Virus record (IMG/VR): IMGVR_UViG_3300043179_000050 | Span: 1-48,205 of that record | From: a virus | Lineage: Duplodnaviria > Caudoviricetes | Direction: 5' to 3' (one strand) | DNA: 48,205 nucleotides | Part shown: positions 8,326 through 38,800 of the stretch, piece by piece | Position numbering within the stretch: the first letter of the stretch is position 1 | How the letters are laid out: every line of letters starts with the position of its first letter | Made by a program: the position numbers and the translations under genes | The notes under the pieces: model-generated | Database searches by the model: none | What the model was told of the DNA's origin: nothing | What the model saw: the letters and a program-made list of their open reading frames with translations, nothing else

Positions 8326-8354
8326 ATTCTACACCACCACGTCCCGCATCTCAA
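8326..8354 (-). promoter_or_regulatory. sigma70-type leftward promoter
   Basis: TTGAGA-17 bp-TAGAAT upstream of the 8307 start. Confidence 0.7.
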
Positions 8355-8907
8355 TGACTTTTAAGTTGGGTTTAACTAATTAACCTTCTTGTAAGCCCTT
8401 TGCTTGCCACAGTTCCACACAAGGGTCTCACATTTTCTATATTTTTTCCTGAGCGCCGTGAGAGGGGCATCCCTCCTTCGCGCGCGCGCGCGAGGGCGAG
8501 CCGGTTTCGCGGTACCCGGCCCGGCCCGGGCGAGCGGCCAGCCACTCACCCCCACTTCCCGCCGGCTCGGCCTCTACCACTCGCCAGCCACTCAGCCACT
8601 TAGCGCGCGCCGCGCCGCCACACGCCAGGCCGGCGAGAGAGAGGGATCCCCTCCCTCTCTCTCACCACGCCCTGGTGGGGCCTGGGGGGGGCTGGGGGCC
8701 TCGAAGAGGGCGGGAAGCCCTCCCCCTCTCTCACCGCACCCGGGATGGGGGCGCTGAGGCAAGCGGCCGCCAGGGGGTAAAGACACGGGCAGATCACTGG
8801 CAGGCCAGGGCCGCAGGTCGAGGCTTTTGTCCGGCCGGCGGCTGGCACAGCCGCCACGGACCACAATAGGTTATCGCCAAAACCCTGTTGCGGCCTACAA
8901 TTTGCGG
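8355..8907. other. non-coding control region between divergent promoters; palindromes and hairpins (candidate genome terminus/pac site or origin)
   Basis: No credible ORF; (CG)7 palindrome 8478-8493; GAGAGAGAGGGA/TCCCTCTCTCTC hairpin about 8634-8663; repeated CCACT; repeated CCCTCC..CTCTCTCACC. Confidence 0.5.
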
Positions 8908-8936
8908 TTGACAAGAGGAAAAAAAAATAGTAGATT
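8908..8936 (+). promoter_or_regulatory. sigma70-type rightward (probably early) promoter
   Basis: TTGACA-17 bp (A-tract)-TAGATT, followed by RBS and ATG 8959. Confidence 0.8.
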
Positions 8937-8958: not shown

Positions 8959-9216
8959 ATGGCTACCCCTTCGGTTCATCTCGCGGTCCTCCCTTCCGGA
9001 GCGCACTTCCTCTTCGTCGGTTGCGAATGGATGGGGGTGCACGTGGTACTCAAGCAAACCAAATCCGGCAACACCCTGGTCAAGGCAACAAGCAAGAAGG
9101 AACGCTCCTTCTCTGCCCTGGACAGGCACACAGGGGAGCTCAAGCAGGTCGTCTTTCTGGCCCCCGCCGGAGACGTCTTCGTTGTCAGCGCCGCAAGTCT
9201 CGTGGCGGCCCAGTAA
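8959..9216 (+). CDS. hypothetical early protein
   Basis: MATPSVHLAV..., GGAG RBS, first gene after the promoter. Confidence 0.65.
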   Translation: MATPSVHLAVLPSGAHFLFVGCEWMGVHVVLKQTKSGNTLVKATSKKERSFSALDRHTGELKQVVFLAPAGDVFVVSAASLVAAQ

Positions 9217-9366
9217 ACCTTGGAGACGTCTTCGTTGTCAGCGACGTCTTCGTTGTCAGCGCCGCAAGTCTCGTGGCGGCCCAGTAAACCTTGGAGACGT
9301 CTTCGTTGTCAGCGACGTCTTCGTTGTCAGCGCCGCAAGTCTCGTGGCGGCCCAGTAAACCTTGGA
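9169..9366. repeat. nested perfect tandem repeat (53+71+71 bp; an 18-mer present five times)
   Basis: A=GACGTCTTCGTTGTCAGC and B=GCCGCAAGTCTCGTGGCGGCCCAGTAAACCTTGGA arranged ABAABAAB. Confidence 0.95.
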
Positions 9367-9379
9367 AAGGAGACCGACA

Positions 9380-9886
9380 ATGGAACAGGCAATGGAACAG
9401 GCTATGACCACGCCAAGAATGAGCCGAGAGGAAGTCATCGAATATGCCAGGAGGTGCCTGGGCTTCACTCACTACCTGACCGCTTCTGGCCCGGTCCCGC
9501 TCGAAAGCTTCGGCCAGGGGCCAGCGTCGAAAGGATGGCGCTACGTGATTAAGAAAGACCATGACGGCCGCACCATCATCCTTGACTCGCCCGAAAAGCT
9601 CATAGACGAGCCGTTCGCTCTCAGGGCCTTCCCGCTGGAGCGCTATCCCAAAGGCAACCTGATCGTGGTCACCTGCGCCATCTGCCAGACGCCCTTTGAA
9701 GCGCATCGAAACTGCCAGCTCGTGAAAGAAGGACGCACCTACTGCGAGGCCCACTCGGTCCTTCGCGGTCCGGCCTGGTGGCTCATCTACAAGAAGGCGC
9801 TCTCGCCGGAGAAGGCCGGAGCCTCGAACGCCGAGACCTGGCGCGAGGCAGAGCAGGAATACCGGGCCGACCAGGGGAGGCGCTGA
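9380..9886 (+). CDS. hypothetical protein with Zn-ribbon-like CxxC...CxxH
   Basis: AAGGAG RBS before ATG 9380; 'CAIC...YCEAH'. Confidence 0.7.
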   Translation: MEQAMEQAMTTPRMSREEVIEYARRCLGFTHYLTASGPVPLESFGQGPASKGWRYVIKKDHDGRTIILDSPEKLIDEPFALRAFPLERYPKGNLIVVTCAICQTPFEAHRNCQLVKEGRTYCEAHSVLRGPAWWLIYKKALSPEKAGASNAETWREAEQEYRADQGRR

Positions 9887-9956
9887 GCGTTGCGGGGAGC
9901 AAGCACCTGCCGTACGGTTGCGCGCATTTCAACAGAACTGAAAGGAAGAAACAACA

Positions 9957-10271
9957 ATGACAATAACAATCGAATGGACTCATGACGGCCTGAGCTGTGA
10001 GCATGTGGAATGCACCGATGGCACCGACTGCCCAGCATTCCCCACCGCAAATGACAGAGCCTTACTGGGCCGCGCTTTTTGGGAAGCCTACTACAAAATG
10101 GATGCCGGACAGCAGGTGTCTGAATTCATTGCAGACCTGCTCCTGCAAGAGTGGACGCGCCCGAAGTTAGAACAGGAAGCCAGAGGCTGCACGCGAATCA
10201 TCTTAGCGAAGGCCTCGGGGATCGCCAACACCGACCGCCGCAAGCTGAAGCGACACAAGGACAGGCGGTAA
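9957..10271 (+). CDS. hypothetical protein
   Basis: AAAGGA RBS; operon packing. Confidence 0.7.
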   Translation: MTITIEWTHDGLSCEHVECTDGTDCPAFPTANDRALLGRAFWEAYYKMDAGQQVSEFIADLLLQEWTRPKLEQEARGCTRIILAKASGIANTDRRKLKRHKDRR

Positions 10272-10276
10272 ACCAG

Positions 10277-10486
10277 ATGGACAAGGGAAGCGAAGAAGAA
10301 TTAGCCGTGACGGGAGCCCCCAGCGGAACCAGCCAAAAGTCTGACCTCGCCTGCCGCACCCATGGACATGCTTACGTCGCCTGCTGCCCGGATTGCGACG
10401 CGACCTTGTTCCTCGCCCTCTTCGTGAGCGCCGTACAGCAAGGCCCTCTGCACAAGACGGGCCCGCCGAGGCCCGAGAAGGAGTAA
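10277..10486 (+). CDS. small Cys/His-rich protein
   Basis: ATG 10277 fills the gap between neighbours; 'CRTHGH...CCPDC'. Confidence 0.5.
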   Translation: MDKGSEEELAVTGAPSGTSQKSDLACRTHGHAYVACCPDCDATLFLALFVSAVQQGPLHKTGPPRPEKE

Positions 10487-10487
10487 C

Positions 10488-10925
10488 ATGAGACTGTCCA
10501 CCAAAATCCTGGCCGTCTACGTCTTCTTTTCCACGGTCGAGCTCGCCCGCTGCGAAACCTTCACAGGCTCCGGCCGGCAGGTCGGCCTTTCTGTCTCCCC
10601 CGCCGCCGCTGGTGACGATCACGAAATCAGACTCGCCGCCATCAAGGCACTGCGCGGTTCCGGCATCAGCCTTGGGTTATGGTCGGTAGCGCTCTCCCGA
10701 ATCCACGTCAAGCGGGTACTCGTCCGCGACGAGTGCGCTGACTCCCGCCACCCAGCGGGCTGTACAACCGCCTACGTGCTCCGCGAGACAGGCGAGCCCT
10801 ACGCGGTGATCTGGTATGTCGCCGGCCATCGGGAAAAAGCAAAGGTGCTGCTTCATGAGTTCCGGCACGCAATCGCCTACGTCACCGGCGACCCAGCATG
10901 GGCGGAAAAAGGACACGCAAAATGA
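10488..10925 (+). CDS. exported small HExxH metallopeptidase-like protein (paralog 2)
   Basis: AAGGAG RBS; hydrophobic N-terminus; 'IWYVAG...VLLHEFRHAI...GD..W...GH'. Confidence 0.7.
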   Translation: MRLSTKILAVYVFFSTVELARCETFTGSGRQVGLSVSPAAAGDDHEIRLAAIKALRGSGISLGLWSVALSRIHVKRVLVRDECADSRHPAGCTTAYVLRETGEPYAVIWYVAGHREKAKVLLHEFRHAIAYVTGDPAWAEKGHAK

Positions 10926-10942
10926 AGCCCCGCTTCTTGTCA

Positions 10943-11019
10943 GCCGAAACCAGGGAGGACATCGCCTTCCCTGGTCCGGGGGATCGTTACGGCCGCGCCC
11001 CCGCCGATGAGGCAGGCCG
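10943..11019 (+). ncRNA. type II hammerhead ribozyme with pseudoknot (U4C core variant)
   Basis: Stem II GCC/GGC; GAAA; stem III CCAGGGAGG/CCTTCCCTGG; GUC cleavage triplet 10974-10976; stem I CGGGGG/CCCCCG; core CCGAUGA; loop I CGGCC pairs with 3' GGCCG. Confidence 0.8.
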
Positions 11020-11030
11020 AAACAAGGAGC

Positions 11031-11097
11031 GCTTCGCGGCGCGGTTGAGAAACCCGGGGAACCTGAGGGTTCCCCGGCAACCGGCCTGAAGCGAAGC
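11031..11097 (+). other. extended multi-stem RNA hairpin upstream of the DUF932-like gene
   Basis: GCTTCGC/GCGAAGC, GGC/GCC, CGGTTG/CAACCG and CCGGGGAACC/GGTTCCCCGG are nested complementary pairs. Confidence 0.6.
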
Positions 11098-11110
11098 GAA
11101 GACAAAACCT

Positions 11111-12169
11111 ATGAATCAAGGACAGGGTCTTACTGCACTGGCTCAGGAGCTAGAGCGCCAGCGCGCGGCGAAGCGAGACTACCTCGCACCAACCCGCGAT
11201 CTAGCCTTCGCCCCGGCGACCAGCGGAACCGGCATCAGCCTTGCCGCCTCCGCCGCCATGCCCGAACACGGACTCACGCCGTGGGCGCACAGTCAACTCG
11301 CTCAGTACGCCGGAATCCCAAAACCGTACTATGACCGCATGCTGAACGAAGACCCGGCGCTCTGCGCGGCGAACATCAACTCCTGGCTTCACCGCAAGAA
11401 TGAAACCCGAATGCTCAGGACACTGGACAACAACATCCGGGCCATCCTCTCGCGGCGGTATCGGCCACTGGACAACTACGATCTGGTCGAATCCGCCATT
11501 CCCATCTTGCAGGAAGCCGGTGCCAAGGTCGAATCCTGCCAGATCACAGAGACCAGGCTCTACCTCAAGGCCGTCACGCCCCGCGTCTCGGGTGAAGTGT
11601 CCAAAGGCGACATCTGCTACCCAGGAGTTGTGATTTCCAACTCCGAGCTTGGCAACGGTGCACTGAAGATCGAACAGATGGTCTACCGGCTGGTTTGCTC
11701 GAACGGCATGATCGCCGGCGCGACGCTTCGCCAGTACCACCTTGGCTCCGGCGCGGACAAAGCGGACGAGGTGTACGAGCTATTCTCGGATCCCACTCGC
11801 CGCCTGGACGACGCGGCACTGTGGGCGAAGGTGAAAGACGTTACCCGGGCGGCGCTCTCTGAGACCTCGTTCCGACCAACCCTAAACCGGCTGATCCAGG
11901 CCAAGGAAAAGGCGTTGGTTTCCGACGACGTTGGAAAGATCGTGGAGCGCACAATCCAGGTGCTAGACCTGCCGCAGAGCACCGGGAAGGGGATTTTGAC
12001 CAATCTGGCGAAGGGCGGAGACTACACGGCCTTCGGGCTGGCCCAAGCTGTCACGGCTACCGCCGAAACCACAGACGATTACGAGCTCGCTACCACCCTT
12101 GAGCGCGCCGGCGGGAATATCATCGAGCTCTCGCCGACCGACTGGCGCTCAATCGCCGAGGCGGCGTAA
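11111..12169 (+). CDS. DUF932/DUF945-family phage/plasmid protein
   Basis: 'LTPWAHSQLA', 'RAILSRRYRPLDN', 'ISNSE.G.G.L', 'RLVCSNGMI' motifs. Confidence 0.85.
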   Translation: MNQGQGLTALAQELERQRAAKRDYLAPTRDLAFAPATSGTGISLAASAAMPEHGLTPWAHSQLAQYAGIPKPYYDRMLNEDPALCAANINSWLHRKNETRMLRTLDNNIRAILSRRYRPLDNYDLVESAIPILQEAGAKVESCQITETRLYLKAVTPRVSGEVSKGDICYPGVVISNSELGNGALKIEQMVYRLVCSNGMIAGATLRQYHLGSGADKADEVYELFSDPTRRLDDAALWAKVKDVTRAALSETSFRPTLNRLIQAKEKALVSDDVGKIVERTIQVLDLPQSTGKGILTNLAKGGDYTAFGLAQAVTATAETTDDYELATTLERAGGNIIELSPTDWRSIAEAA

Positions 12170-12284
12170 GCTGGTAGGCGCCCACCGGGAATGAGCCCGG
12201 TCGTCTACGGGTAGGGCTTGAGCCGTTGGTCGGGATAAGAAGCGTCGGCTCAAGCCCCTCCCGGAGGCAAACCAAGGAGAAACC

Positions 12285-12608
12285 ATGACTCTCAAGATCG
12301 CCGTTGCCGACACTTGGGAAGACTACCACAAGATCCCCGGCAATCTAGCCAAGCTCCAGGCCGCCGGCTTCCATTGGGCTTTCCCGCCACGCCCTGGCGA
12401 AGGTGCGTCCATGGCATCCGTGACGATACCGTTCTCGGCTTTCAAGCGAATTTTCAGCTTTCCCGATAAGCGCCCCGCGCCACAAATACTTTGGGACGGG
12501 GCGTGCTGGCCACCACCCAGCAACTTCCTGGCGTACATCCAAGTGCGCCTGATCCCGCTGTGCGCCAAGGCCCTGGCCGAAGCCCTAGCACAGGATCCAC
12601 GAAAGTGA
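12285..12608 (+). CDS. hypothetical protein
   Basis: AAGGAG RBS. Confidence 0.65.
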   Translation: MTLKIAVADTWEDYHKIPGNLAKLQAAGFHWAFPPRPGEGASMASVTIPFSAFKRIFSFPDKRPAPQILWDGACWPPPSNFLAYIQVRLIPLCAKALAEALAQDPRK

Positions 12609-20530: not shown

Positions 20531-20603
20531 AGGCGGCCCCGGGAATCGAACCCAGTTCTCCAGCGCATGAGGCTGGCGTGATGTCCACACTCACTCGGCC
20601 GCT
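20531..20603 (-). tRNA. tRNA with CAU anticodon (Met/fMet/Ile2-like), degenerate
   Basis: Cloverleaf: acceptor GCGGCC/GGCCGC, D stem GTGA/TCAC, anticodon stem CCAGC/GCTGG with loop CTCATGC, T arm CTGGG-TTCGATT-CCCGG; no encoded CCA. Confidence 0.75.
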
Positions 20604-31396: not shown

Positions 31397-31626
31397 GTAC
31401 ACACCCCATCCAGGTGGTTCTTGAAGACGCTAATTCGCGCTTCCAACCCAAGTTGTTGAACAGCAAGGGCATGCGCCTTGCTAACACTCACAGGCTCTCC
31501 AGACGCTAACAAATTCTCAAGCTCCAAAACGAACTCTTTCACGTCTCGGTTTGCCTTTCGGAACCAACACACCTGGCTGGCCTTGCGTGCCGTAGCCAAC
31601 ATTTCGGCAAGCAATTTCTTTTGCAA
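31360..31626 (-). CDS. small hypothetical protein
   Basis: TTG with GGGAGG RBS; 'CWF...NH....C' pattern. Confidence 0.5.
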   Translation of the reverse strand: MQKKLLAEMLATARKASQVCWFRKANRDVKEFVLELENLLASGEPVSVSKAHALAVQQLGLEARISVFKNHLDGVCTCAKRKHLPKQR

Positions 31627-35873: not shown

Positions 35874-38800
35874 CTACCTCCGCCCTCTGGCCCGCTCGAT
35901 TTCCTCGATGCGCCGGCGAGCGATCCGACCCCGGTACGCCTTCCTGGCGCCGCTTTTAAAGCTTCCCACCTCGAACGCCGGGAACGGGTACCCCCCGGGC
36001 CGGAGCTTGGTGATGGTGAAGGCTCTCCGGGTGGCCCCCACGAGCGCGCCCAGCGGCCCTTTAGCAACCGGCCGGCCAAACGCCTTGGCCCGGCCCTTGA
36101 AGCCCTGCTCTGTGCCCTGCGCGACCGCCTTCAGCTTAGACAAAGACGGGGCAATCTGCTCCACCCTCTGCTCCGCGAACACATCTTCCGCACGGCCGGC
36201 CAGATACTGCGGTAGACCAAGAGTGCCGGCATACGAAAGGTTTTGCAGCGTTCTGATAATCAGATTCGGGCTGCGAGTAGCAGACTGGACCCGGGTCGTG
36301 ATCTGATCGAACACTTGGTTCGTCGACTCCTCCGGACGCCCCATCAGGTCTTCTTTGGAAGGCAGCTCGATGCCCAGGCCGGACAAAAACGCCCTCACGT
36401 CGAGCAACATCTCCCCGGCCACCGTGCCGGCAATCATCATTCCCACCATAGGCTTCACTGCGCGCCCGAACCGTCCCCAGTCTCTCGCGCGCGCGGCCCG
36501 CACCGCGGTTTTGCCCAGCTCCACGTGAAGCCTCGACATCCCGTACATGAAGTGGCCGAACTGAAACATCGTCTTGCCTACTTCGCTACTCCAAAACGCC
36601 GGTAAATTCTCTGTCACGGCTCGAAGCTGGGTCGTGTCGGAAATGTACTTGCCTACCGCTAACAGGTCAGCGTCCGACAGCCGGCCCGAATACTTCCGGC
36701 CGGCAGCTCCCAGCAGCTCGGTCAAGGCCTCGGTGTTGCCCGCCTTTTGCAGGCTTTCGGCAAACAACTCGCCAGACCGCGCCGCAATAACTCGCCCAAG
36801 CTGGTCCACAGTTGGCGCCCCCCACATAAACCCCTTGATGCCACCCCCACCAACCGCTTCGGCCAACTCCGATCTTAGCGCCGGGATGGTTGCCCCGGCC
36901 TCAAGGGCGCGGTTGTAGAACCGCCTCGGGTCGGTCATCACATCTTTAATCGCCCGCAGAAAGTTCCTGGCGCCGGTGAACCCGGGAATTGTGTGCACCT
37001 GCGCCGCCTGTGCCAACGAAGACATCGTCAGAGACGCGAAGGCGGTCAGCTTCCGCACCCCGGTCAAAAACTGCGTGCCGCTATCCGGCGCGCGCTGCCC
37101 GGTAATCCGAGTTACGAATTCCAGGCCCAAATCCTCCGCGCCTTTGCCGTAGCGACCCATCTCCGCCGCGAGTTGGAAAGCATGAGCAAGCTGGTTTCCG
37201 ACCTTGAATTTGCCCTGTGCGTTCAAGGCGCCGAACGCCTCGATCTGCGCAAGCTGCTCGTAAGCGTCAAGCAAATACTCACGAATCACAGCCTTGTCCG
37301 TTCTCCATCCAGCCACGTTGTGAAGGTTACGACTCAGCTCCAGATTGGCCGACATCGCCCTAGAAGGCAACTCAAGCTGCCTGCCTGTACGCGGATCAAG
37401 AGCACCGGCCTTCGCCAGCGCTTCAGCCACTTCAGGCGGCATCCGCTCGAATATGTGCGGAAAATAATTTTTGATGTACCCAATGTCCCATCCGAGCTGG
37501 GCCGCTCTCTGGTGCACTTCGTCTAGAATTGACGCCAATTCCTGCACCACAAGCTTTAGTTTTTCTGGCACCTGGGCGCCAGTATCTAGGGCATGTACGA
37601 CCTGCCGCCACTCAAAATCGGAAAGAGGTTTAATAAGTCGGTCCGCCCGGGCAATCGCGCTGCCAGCCATTCTTTCAAAGGATTCACGGTACACAGTGGC
37701 TCTCCACGCCAACTCACGTCCAGCCTCGCCATACTTGGCCACGGCTCTGCCGAACGGCACAAGCACCCGCTCATATACCTTGGCAAGCGACTTCCCAACA
37801 ACTTTGGCCGCCTTCCACATAGCAGGAAGCGGTAGACCGCCGTACAGCTCGGTGTAACCTTCCGGCGTTTCCCCAAGTAAGCCCTGCGCCTTGGCCTTTT
37901 CAAACTCGCCCTTTTTGAATGCCCGAGAGGGAAGTCGTTCACCCTTTTGGACATCTTCCGCCGACAGTTTTTCCGGACCTTTCGTTTCTGCGGCAACAAC
38001 CCTGGCTGCCGTCTGTGGAGTTATCGGGCGCCGTGCACGCTCAATAAACTTGTCCAGGTTTCTCGTTTTGACCTCGATCATGGCCTTGCCAAGCCTAAAC
38101 CGGGTCCATTCGGGAACGTCATCCTTCCAGAGAACCAGGCCCGACGAATCCTTCATCGGGTTGCCAGCCTCGTCGAGAAGAGCGTACTTTCTCACCTCCT
38201 GCTCGGCGCGCTCCGCAAGGTTGTTCAGCATTTCTTTCTCGGTTTTACCGTCGACCTCGATCACAGGAAACACTTCTCGCTCGGCCCTGGCCGCCGCAGT
38301 CTTTTCAGCCTCGGCGGCCGCTTTGGCGGACGCTTCAACCTTGACAGCCTCTTCGGCGCGAATCTCCTGGTCGAGCACCTCTTCCAGCTTGCGTAGCCGC
38401 TCAACCGGCGCCGCAGAAAACTCGCCTCGTCTGGCCAGCCTTGCAGATTCATCTGCAATGAAACTCCGCAACCCGGCCTGCTCCGCTCGTTCGTAAAGCG
38501 CATCCTCGCGTTTCCGCAGCGCCTCTGAAACACGGGCTTTGATCTCAGGGCTCGTCTTGGCGAACGTCCGCAAGATGCCGGCGGCATTTTCGACAATAGG
38601 CTTGCTCTGCGGGAACCAGCGCCCATCCTGAGTTTGAGCCCCGTACTCAAACTCGATCTCTCCAGACTCCTTCAGCACCCTAATTATCCGCACCTCAGTG
38701 TCTCCGCGGACCGAGCGCAGTACATCCCCCTCGGCCACCCGCCGACTGGCGATAAGAGACCGGCCTTCACGGGCCATGGCCTCTTCAAGCCGGGCCTCTG

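Follow-up and report, generated by a model that had tools for sequence, protein, structure and literature searches.

A predicted type II hammerhead ribozyme with a U4C core between two phage genes, with flanks predicted to pair over a Shine-Dalgarno-like word

Hammerhead ribozymes cleave by Mg2+-dependent internal transesterification, which leaves a 2',3'-cyclic phosphate and a 5'-OH end. Pseudoknotted hammerheads of type II are known from bacteria and prophages, where the available text of Perreault et al. (2011; PMC3088659; Rfam family RF02276) places them between prophage genes and reports cleavage for such arrays; the accessible part of PMC8782182 describes three type II hammerheads, located near phage-like genes, that are cleaved in vivo. 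The putative ribozyme considered here, at positions 10943-11019 of a phage genome, shares with those in PMC3088659, as far as that text sets them out, an open stem II, closed stems I and III, a 5-bp pseudoknot, the triplet GUC and a location between small phage genes, but differs from them by a C instead of a U at core position 4, by a 10-bp helix formed between its flanks and by an AAGGAG word with no start codon after it. The same core change is found in a viroid U4C variant, which PMC3088659, in the same available text, cites as slower in vitro and sufficient in vivo, whereas the phage copy resides in a DNA phage, is of type II and has a pseudoknot.

Other parts of the locus recall known devices for translational control. 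Genes 25 and 38 of T4 have split ribosome-binding sites in which, as presented in the accessible portion of PMC3014915, a Shine-Dalgarno-like word also lies far from its AUG with a hairpin in between, and the effective spacing, predicted to be 12 nt in our phage, is 11 nt in T4 gene 25. The T4 sites, however, loop out only about 16-17 nt, as compared with a 69-nt hairpin here, and they come without a ribozyme or an anti-Shine-Dalgarno strand. In the aptazymes of Wieland and Hartig (PMC5367253, to judge from its available text), a helix linked to a hammerhead conceals a Shine-Dalgarno sequence, which is freed on cleavage. Yet these constructs are synthetic and ligand-gated. In the phage locus no ligand sensor was seen, and the helix that masks the Shine-Dalgarno-like word is external to the ribozyme and, unlike in these designs, is predicted to survive cleavage unless it is opened.

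The window, i.e. the whole stretch of DNA that was analysed, is a phage record of 48,205 bases, 63% complete according to CheckV. Its minus strand carries genes for an SU10-type capsid protein, a portal-like protein, a terminase, a primase/helicase and an SNF2 helicase, so that the record is that of a tailed phage. On the plus strand a short gene cluster (about 8959-12608) lies downstream of a sigma-70-type promoter-like site at 8908-8936 (TTGACA-17-TAGATT), which agrees with the consensus at 10 of 12 positions and, as a consensus match only, is a candidate start of an operon; we infer that this cluster forms an early transcript. The hammerhead sits between two of its genes, a 145-amino-acid open reading frame (10488-10925) and a 352-amino-acid DUF932 gene (PF06067; 11111-12169), and thus in the very setting, between two plus-strand phage genes and 5' of the DUF932 gene, that a preliminary description of this DNA had given. 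The upstream frame, the stop of which at 10925 is 6 nt 5' of the flanking helix, looks like a genuine gene: it has an HEFRH motif of the HExxH type, reaches a feature score of 0.92 to unnamed viral clusters and is predicted to fold much as zinc metallopeptidases do, though not closely enough to assign it to a family, while searches of Pfam, PHROG and NCBIfam gave no match. The DUF932 gene is also TIGR03299-like, with a match below the cut-off, and its start at 11111 aligns with M1 of homologues; one DUF932 homologue, P0002, shares 68% identity. Close relatives of the locus were absent from viral contigs searched with both the DUF932 and the capsid protein, a single distant and partial match came from metagenome contigs, and blastn against GenBank phages returned nothing meaningful. 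A look through sequencing runs turned up no RNA data set for the locus. One DNA sequencing run showed no variant letters relative to the window, but this run may be the window's own source and hence not independent.

Several other features of the genome may be recorded here. At 9172-9384 (+) a 71-nt unit is present in three tandem copies with identities of 100, 100 and 82%, which copy the end of the first plus-strand gene together with a portion of the ribosome-binding site that comes next. A real repeat would fit the contig depths (125 and 87 versus 37), again from a run that may be the source of the window. Within this repeat, CTTCGTTGTCAGC resembles the 5' flank of the hammerhead, CTTCTTGTCAGC. 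Divergent sigma-70-like sites at 8326-8354 (-) and 8908-8936 (+) flank a stretch (8480-8760) that is rich in GC, poor in ORFs and made up of inverted and direct repeats; the most stable 69-nt fold of a genome scan is located here. At 20531-20603 (-) there is a tRNA-like gene that scores 37 bits and has the anticodon CAU.

The type II hammerhead fold spans 10943-11019, with 6, 3 and 10 bp in stems I, II and III and a 5-bp pseudoknot. From its 5' end it consists of one strand of stem II (positions 11.3-11.1; 10943-10945), which pairs with G11011-C11013, followed by G12-A13-A14-A15.1 (10946-10949) and by the hairpin of stem III, in which 10949-10958 pairs with 10966-10975 (10 bp, i.e. A15.1-U16.1 plus 9 bp) around a 7-nt loop. 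The GUC triplet G16.2-U16.1-C17 occupies 10974-10976, so that the cut is predicted between 10976 and 10977. Stem I (10977-10982 with 10998-11003; 6 bp) closes a 15-nt loop containing CGGCC (10990-10994), the complement of GGCCG at 11015-11019; the catalytic core CCGAUGA, with C4 at C11005, lies at 11004-11010, and the GGC of stem II, an A and the GGCCG of the pseudoknot follow at 11011-11019. All type II requirements are present, namely C3, G5, A6, G8 and A9, then G12, A13 and A14, the pair A15.1-U16.1, H17 and the pair G10.1-C11.1, as is the topology with stems I and III closed and stem II open; the pseudoknot, seen as complementarity only, has 5 bp where at least 4 bp are asked for. A descriptor scan of both strands identified 10943-11019 as the sole type II match within the window, and when the whole window was dinucleotide-shuffled 100 times, a type II match having at least 6, 3 and 6 bp in stems I, II and III never arose, loose matches occurring at a mean of 0.09 per shuffled genome. 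A type III-like descriptor match at 38356, inside a long open reading frame, was treated as chance. The preliminary description had claimed a complete hammerhead topology, and all the letters it described are indeed there, together with stems I-III and the loop I/tail complementarity.

That description had also proposed the U4C core and a cut after C10976, for which the descriptor match and a covariance model both speak, and had pointed to the Rfam Hammerhead_II model as a check. The latter, RF02276 (cut-off 37 bits), does not match the window: Rfam yielded no hammerhead at gathering score, none at E<=10 in the 601 bases of 10700-11300 and none when RF02276 was used alone, and the only hits in the window and in this segment were at chance level, e.g. 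C4 with 16 bits versus a required 45. Since four of six loci tested from U4C relatives reach the RF02276 cut-off, the miss is particular to the present copy, and it is probably due to its stem III and loop I, both of which are longer than in the RF02276 consensus. A covariance model trained on 22 viral U4C ribozymes, with the window itself left out, scores the hammerhead at 54.5 bits and the next best place at 14.4 bits, although part of the 54.5 bits is built in because the training set was fetched with a pattern from the window's own core. The 14.4-bit match, at 31542-31611 (-), has neither GUC nor a full core and probably arose by chance. As far as its sequence can be tested, 10943-11019 thus qualifies as a type II pseudoknotted hammerhead if the core is defined as CYGANGA, a published search descriptor that allows U4C (PMC13481778, in the part available). 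It is not filed as a canonical CUGANGA hammerhead, U4 being absent (C11005), nor under RF02276, the score of which it does not reach, and Rfam overlooks some U4C copies, this one among them.

How unusual is such a core? IMG/VR was scanned with one pattern in three versions of position 4, covering 25, 7 and 28 of 64 parts. Among the matches listed, and by the same fold test, 38 of 121 U4C loci adopted the type II fold, as compared with 110 of 131 U4 loci and a single one of 120 loci with U4A/G; with stricter stems the numbers folding among the matches listed were 37, 101 and 0, respectively. In bacterial genomes, 24 of 68 U4C loci fold, and the U4C architecture recurs with different stem sequences in these as well as in other phages. 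The CYGANGA class has a pyrimidine at position 4, as does the phage copy, and the comparison of these sequences indicates that U4C is specifically tolerated and recurrent in phage type II hammerheads, where it makes up roughly one in ten of the subclass by rough arithmetic from an estimated 310 or so and 1100 stretches. The preliminary description was right about the variant letter, but the variant is less unusual than it had implied.

The pseudoknot, which was absent from the U4C search pattern, provides an independent test on all 38 relatives: 25 of them can form at least 4 bp, versus a mean of 7.8 (maximum 15) after their tails were swapped, and 19 can form at least 5 bp, versus a mean of 2.8. 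In an alignment of 22 U4C ribozymes 94% are paired and 13 of 19 pairs show compensatory changes, such changes being seen in stems I and III and in the pseudoknot; this alignment comprises 22 of 26 ribozymes preselected for a pseudoknot of at least 4 bp (L010, L039, L064 and L118 being left out) and hence illustrates the structure rather than testing it independently. Our literature search found neither cleavage nor rate measurements for type II ribozymes of phages with a U4C core. The text supplements of PMC3088659 contain one CCGAUGA label, on a type I Aedes construct, while type II ribozymes with U4C may be present among the sequences of its alignment dataset or in its figure panels, and in the accessible part of PMC3376415 nothing on U4C was found. 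Some single contigs (L025/L026, L002, L104) bear several hammerheads, in some cases mixing U4 and U4C copies of one architecture.

The flanks of the ribozyme pair with each other over 10 contiguous bp, in the geometry of a stem III, as the preliminary description had noticed, with one pair more than it had counted. The 5' strand (10931-10940) contains the complement of AAGGAG, and the 3' strand (11022-11031) contains this Shine-Dalgarno-like word itself at 11024-11029. A contiguous flank helix of at least 10 bp is seen in none of the relatives with enough flank (0/37, 0/110 and 0/23, i.e. 0/170), and its chance rate is about 0.5-1%, with 25 cases when flanks were shuffled 5000 times and 47 among 5000 genome pairs of the same geometry; of 20000 random 22-mers, 40 covered AAGGAG equally well. 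By duplex energy the helix is less rare, being equalled in 65 of 5000 flank shuffles, 254 of 5000 genome pairs and one of 147 relatives. In a Gemmatimonadaceae MAG (L641, match at 251-331) the flanks of a U4C hammerhead pair over a purine-rich stretch before a start codon (-17.6 kcal/mol, 6 contiguous bp), which is a weaker possible parallel.

The preliminary description had taken this outer helix as part of a second GUC/GAAA half-site that may give an alternative fold or switch. In a nested double hammerhead of this kind the outer GUC and GAAA would share the core of the inner ribozyme and direct another cut at 10941/10942. The outer helix reproduces the geometry of stem III exactly, with A11022-U10940 and 9 bp more, whereas a comparable stem III in the relatives has 5 bp at best and reaches 3 bp in only 7 of 147, and a stem II of 2 bp (GG-CAGG-CC) is possible. 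But stem I cannot form, since the AGCCG after C10941 is unable to pair with the CCCCCG before the only core, A10942 faces G11003 and next to the site only G10943-C11002 pairs; the second cut site was rejected for this reason. A scan with type I and III descriptors finds nothing at the locus either, and the only other core-like word nearby, CUGAAGC at 11086, lacks A9 and the right register. Moreover, AGCC before GAAA, and GGCC with an A-rich tail, are features of the family: the former is common there, ACAGCC is present in 3 of 38 U4C relatives, and the pseudoknot has a GAAA after it in 4 of 38 and in 12 of 111 relatives. The second GAAA derives from the pseudoknot strand and A-rich tail of the family, and a nested ribozyme is highly improbable. 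That the helix includes a Shine-Dalgarno-like word suggests a role other than the one first assigned to it.

Directly after AAGGAG follows a bulged hairpin of 69 nt (11030-11098, +; -45.9 kcal/mol, z -6.28), then 12 nt and the AUG of DUF932 at 11111. None of 200 shuffles was as stable as this hairpin, and only one of 4186 genome windows was as low. No family or homologue of it was found with Rfam, blastn or pattern searches; among 119 loci retrieved by a hairpin pattern four had a stable inner hairpin and none, by eye, the full architecture, and a tighter pattern retrieved nothing. Inspection by eye against consensus features also led us to reject the idea that 11030-11098 is itself a ribozyme of the hammerhead, hairpin, twister, pistol or HDV-like kind. 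Its 5' arm (11030-11043) is in addition complementary at 13 of 14 positions to DUF932 coding sequence at 11162-11175, a pairing that would enclose the start codon. A nested hairpin recurs in six DUF932 loci (L140, L142, L180, L181, L200, L129) just 5' of the Shine-Dalgarno sequence of the homologue. Its loop is of the GGCA(A)TACC / GACATACC type, it falls within the last 100 nt before the DUF932 start (roughly 1400-1500 in most of these loci), and it may be a separate conserved RNA motif.

The DUF932 AUG itself lacks a proximal Shine-Dalgarno sequence, its anti-Shine-Dalgarno pairing amounting to -1.2 kcal/mol versus -4.9 to -10.2 kcal/mol for the other six plus-strand starts. Of the 38 starts tested in the genome, two others, both among the 31 on the minus strand, are as weak, although the tested starts are those of the ORF list, in which errors are possible, and one of the plus-strand starts was indexed one base off. 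Ordinary proximal Shine-Dalgarno sequences prevail among 80 distant DUF932 loci; with three of the 80 skipped where the match does not begin at the start codon, 4 of 77 starts of homologous genes are as weak and the median is -7.4 kcal/mol, to be compared with -7.2 kcal/mol for AAGGAG. Across the ribozyme family, 109 of 149 members have a Shine-Dalgarno-like word 5-35 nt after A9, and only five of these 109 have no start codon just after it; the AAGGAG of the phage copy thus differs from most in having none. An in-frame TTG at 11045 runs into a stop before the AUG is reached. At the sequence level the order of AAGGAG (11024-11029), hairpin (11030-11098), 12 nt and AUG 11111 fits the layout of a split ribosome-binding site.

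The hammerhead is likely to cleave the plus-strand transcript rather slowly, between C10976 and the next base, and to leave the DUF932 mRNA with a 5'-OH on a structured end. The polycistronic mRNA would thereby release a 3' piece carrying the DUF932 gene, at a rate probably below that of a U4 ribozyme, and the role of the cut could consist in trimming the early transcript to gene-sized pieces. Pseudoknot-blind folding, however, favours an inactive form, by -34.4 versus -30.8 kcal/mol for the hammerhead alone and by -48.2 versus -41.8 kcal/mol with the outer helix, the probability of stem II being about 0; in this form the core lies in a GCC-GAUGA-GGC hairpin and the stem II strand is paired with the tail. 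These energies leave out Mg2+ and the pseudoknot duplex (-10.8 kcal/mol by itself), and natural relatives folded with the same program likewise show low stem II probabilities, with medians of 0.12 and 0.26, so that the preference for the inactive fold is weak evidence and no proof of inactivity. Still, a decayed ribozyme has to be considered, in which U4C and the flanking helix lock the inactive fold, leaving a relic with no useful cutting rate. Besides the calculated preference, such a trapped state would agree with the prediction that in short nascent transcripts the core is also engaged by the 5' flank, with a core-hairpin probability above 0.3 in 11 of 38 U4C relatives versus 7 of 111 and with the lowering of in vitro activity by U4C (PMC3088659, available text). 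Yet all other core letters, all stems and the pseudoknot are intact, and U4C, unlike U4A/G, recurs with intact and covarying stems; we consider a relic unlikely.

The outer helix is predicted to form, to slow folding into the active shape and to hold the cleavage products together. Predicted product binding through it amounts to -13.5 to -15.0 kcal/mol, versus -1.6 to -5.0 kcal/mol without it, and cleavage alone would therefore not free AAGGAG. The predicted accessibility of this word is 0.18 in the precursor (0.01 in a shorter segment) and 0.69-0.87 in the isolated 3' product; masking the bases up to 10934 or 10936 raises it to 0.44 or 0.95, while masking to 10932 does not open it. Positions 10934-10936 are roughly as far as a ribosome might reach when it stands at the upstream stop. 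As an addition to, and not in competition with, cleavage of the transcript, AAGGAG could serve as the Shine-Dalgarno sequence of DUF932, with the 69-nt hairpin reducing its distance from the AUG to about 12 nt and the outer helix hiding it until a ribosome at the 10925 stop opens the 5' strand, whereupon the ribozyme would fold and its cut would make the release permanent. We regard this latched split ribosome-binding site, drawn from sequence and modelling, as a tentative possibility, somewhat more probable than decay of the ribozyme. It would account for a flank helix of a length that none of the 170 relatives attains and that is rare in shuffles and genome pairs, for a Shine-Dalgarno-like word that is among the few in the family without a start codon just after it, for the weakness of the proximal DUF932 signal as compared with AAGGAG and for the predicted rise in accessibility both in the 3' product and on masking to 10934 or 10936; hairpin-split sites, moreover, are in use in T4 genes 25 and 38 (PMC3014915, accessible portion). 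On the other hand, it was noticed after the fact in a single sequence, no close relative that might show covariation was found, and the T4 precedents loop out far less RNA. The flanks are less exceptional by duplex energy, the helix is absent from the family and hence no conserved mechanism, and the two equally weak starts elsewhere in the genome mean that starts without a Shine-Dalgarno sequence may be normal. The products are also predicted to stay bound, so that cleavage by itself leaves AAGGAG covered, as does masking only to 10932.

Hammerheads are no fixed partner of the DUF932 gene, since a descriptor finds one within 400 nt upstream in only three of 80 DUF932 loci, of types I and III and all below the Rfam cut-off, which fits their known loose placement between phage genes. 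The matches directly upstream of DUF932 homologues are at L149:1424-1478, L167:1423-1477 and L188:1378-1444; another hammerhead next to a DUF932 homologue, just upstream of 1501 in L187, was seen by eye only.

As a ribozyme, 10943-11019 is one more member of a class known since 2011. The complete arrangement, in which an anti-Shine-Dalgarno strand is latched round a slow U4C hammerhead, the Shine-Dalgarno sequence is split off across the 69-nt hairpin, an upstream ribosome opens the latch and the cut 3' mRNA stays permanently translatable, would amount to a natural ribozyme-gated ON switch for translation. As a whole it is a shade less probable than the latched binding site, and we put it forward as a speculative model; if true, it would be a natural counterpart of the engineered aptazyme ON switches. 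Self-cleavage has been linked to translation in eukaryotic RNA viruses (PMC13725137, in the part available), and our literature search found no natural case of ribozyme-linked activation of translation in a bacterial virus, which is what the locus would represent if the latch is real. With cleavage, an anti-Shine-Dalgarno helix and translation of the next gene joined in one compact construct, it bears on the question of what purpose hammerhead ribozymes may serve in phages.
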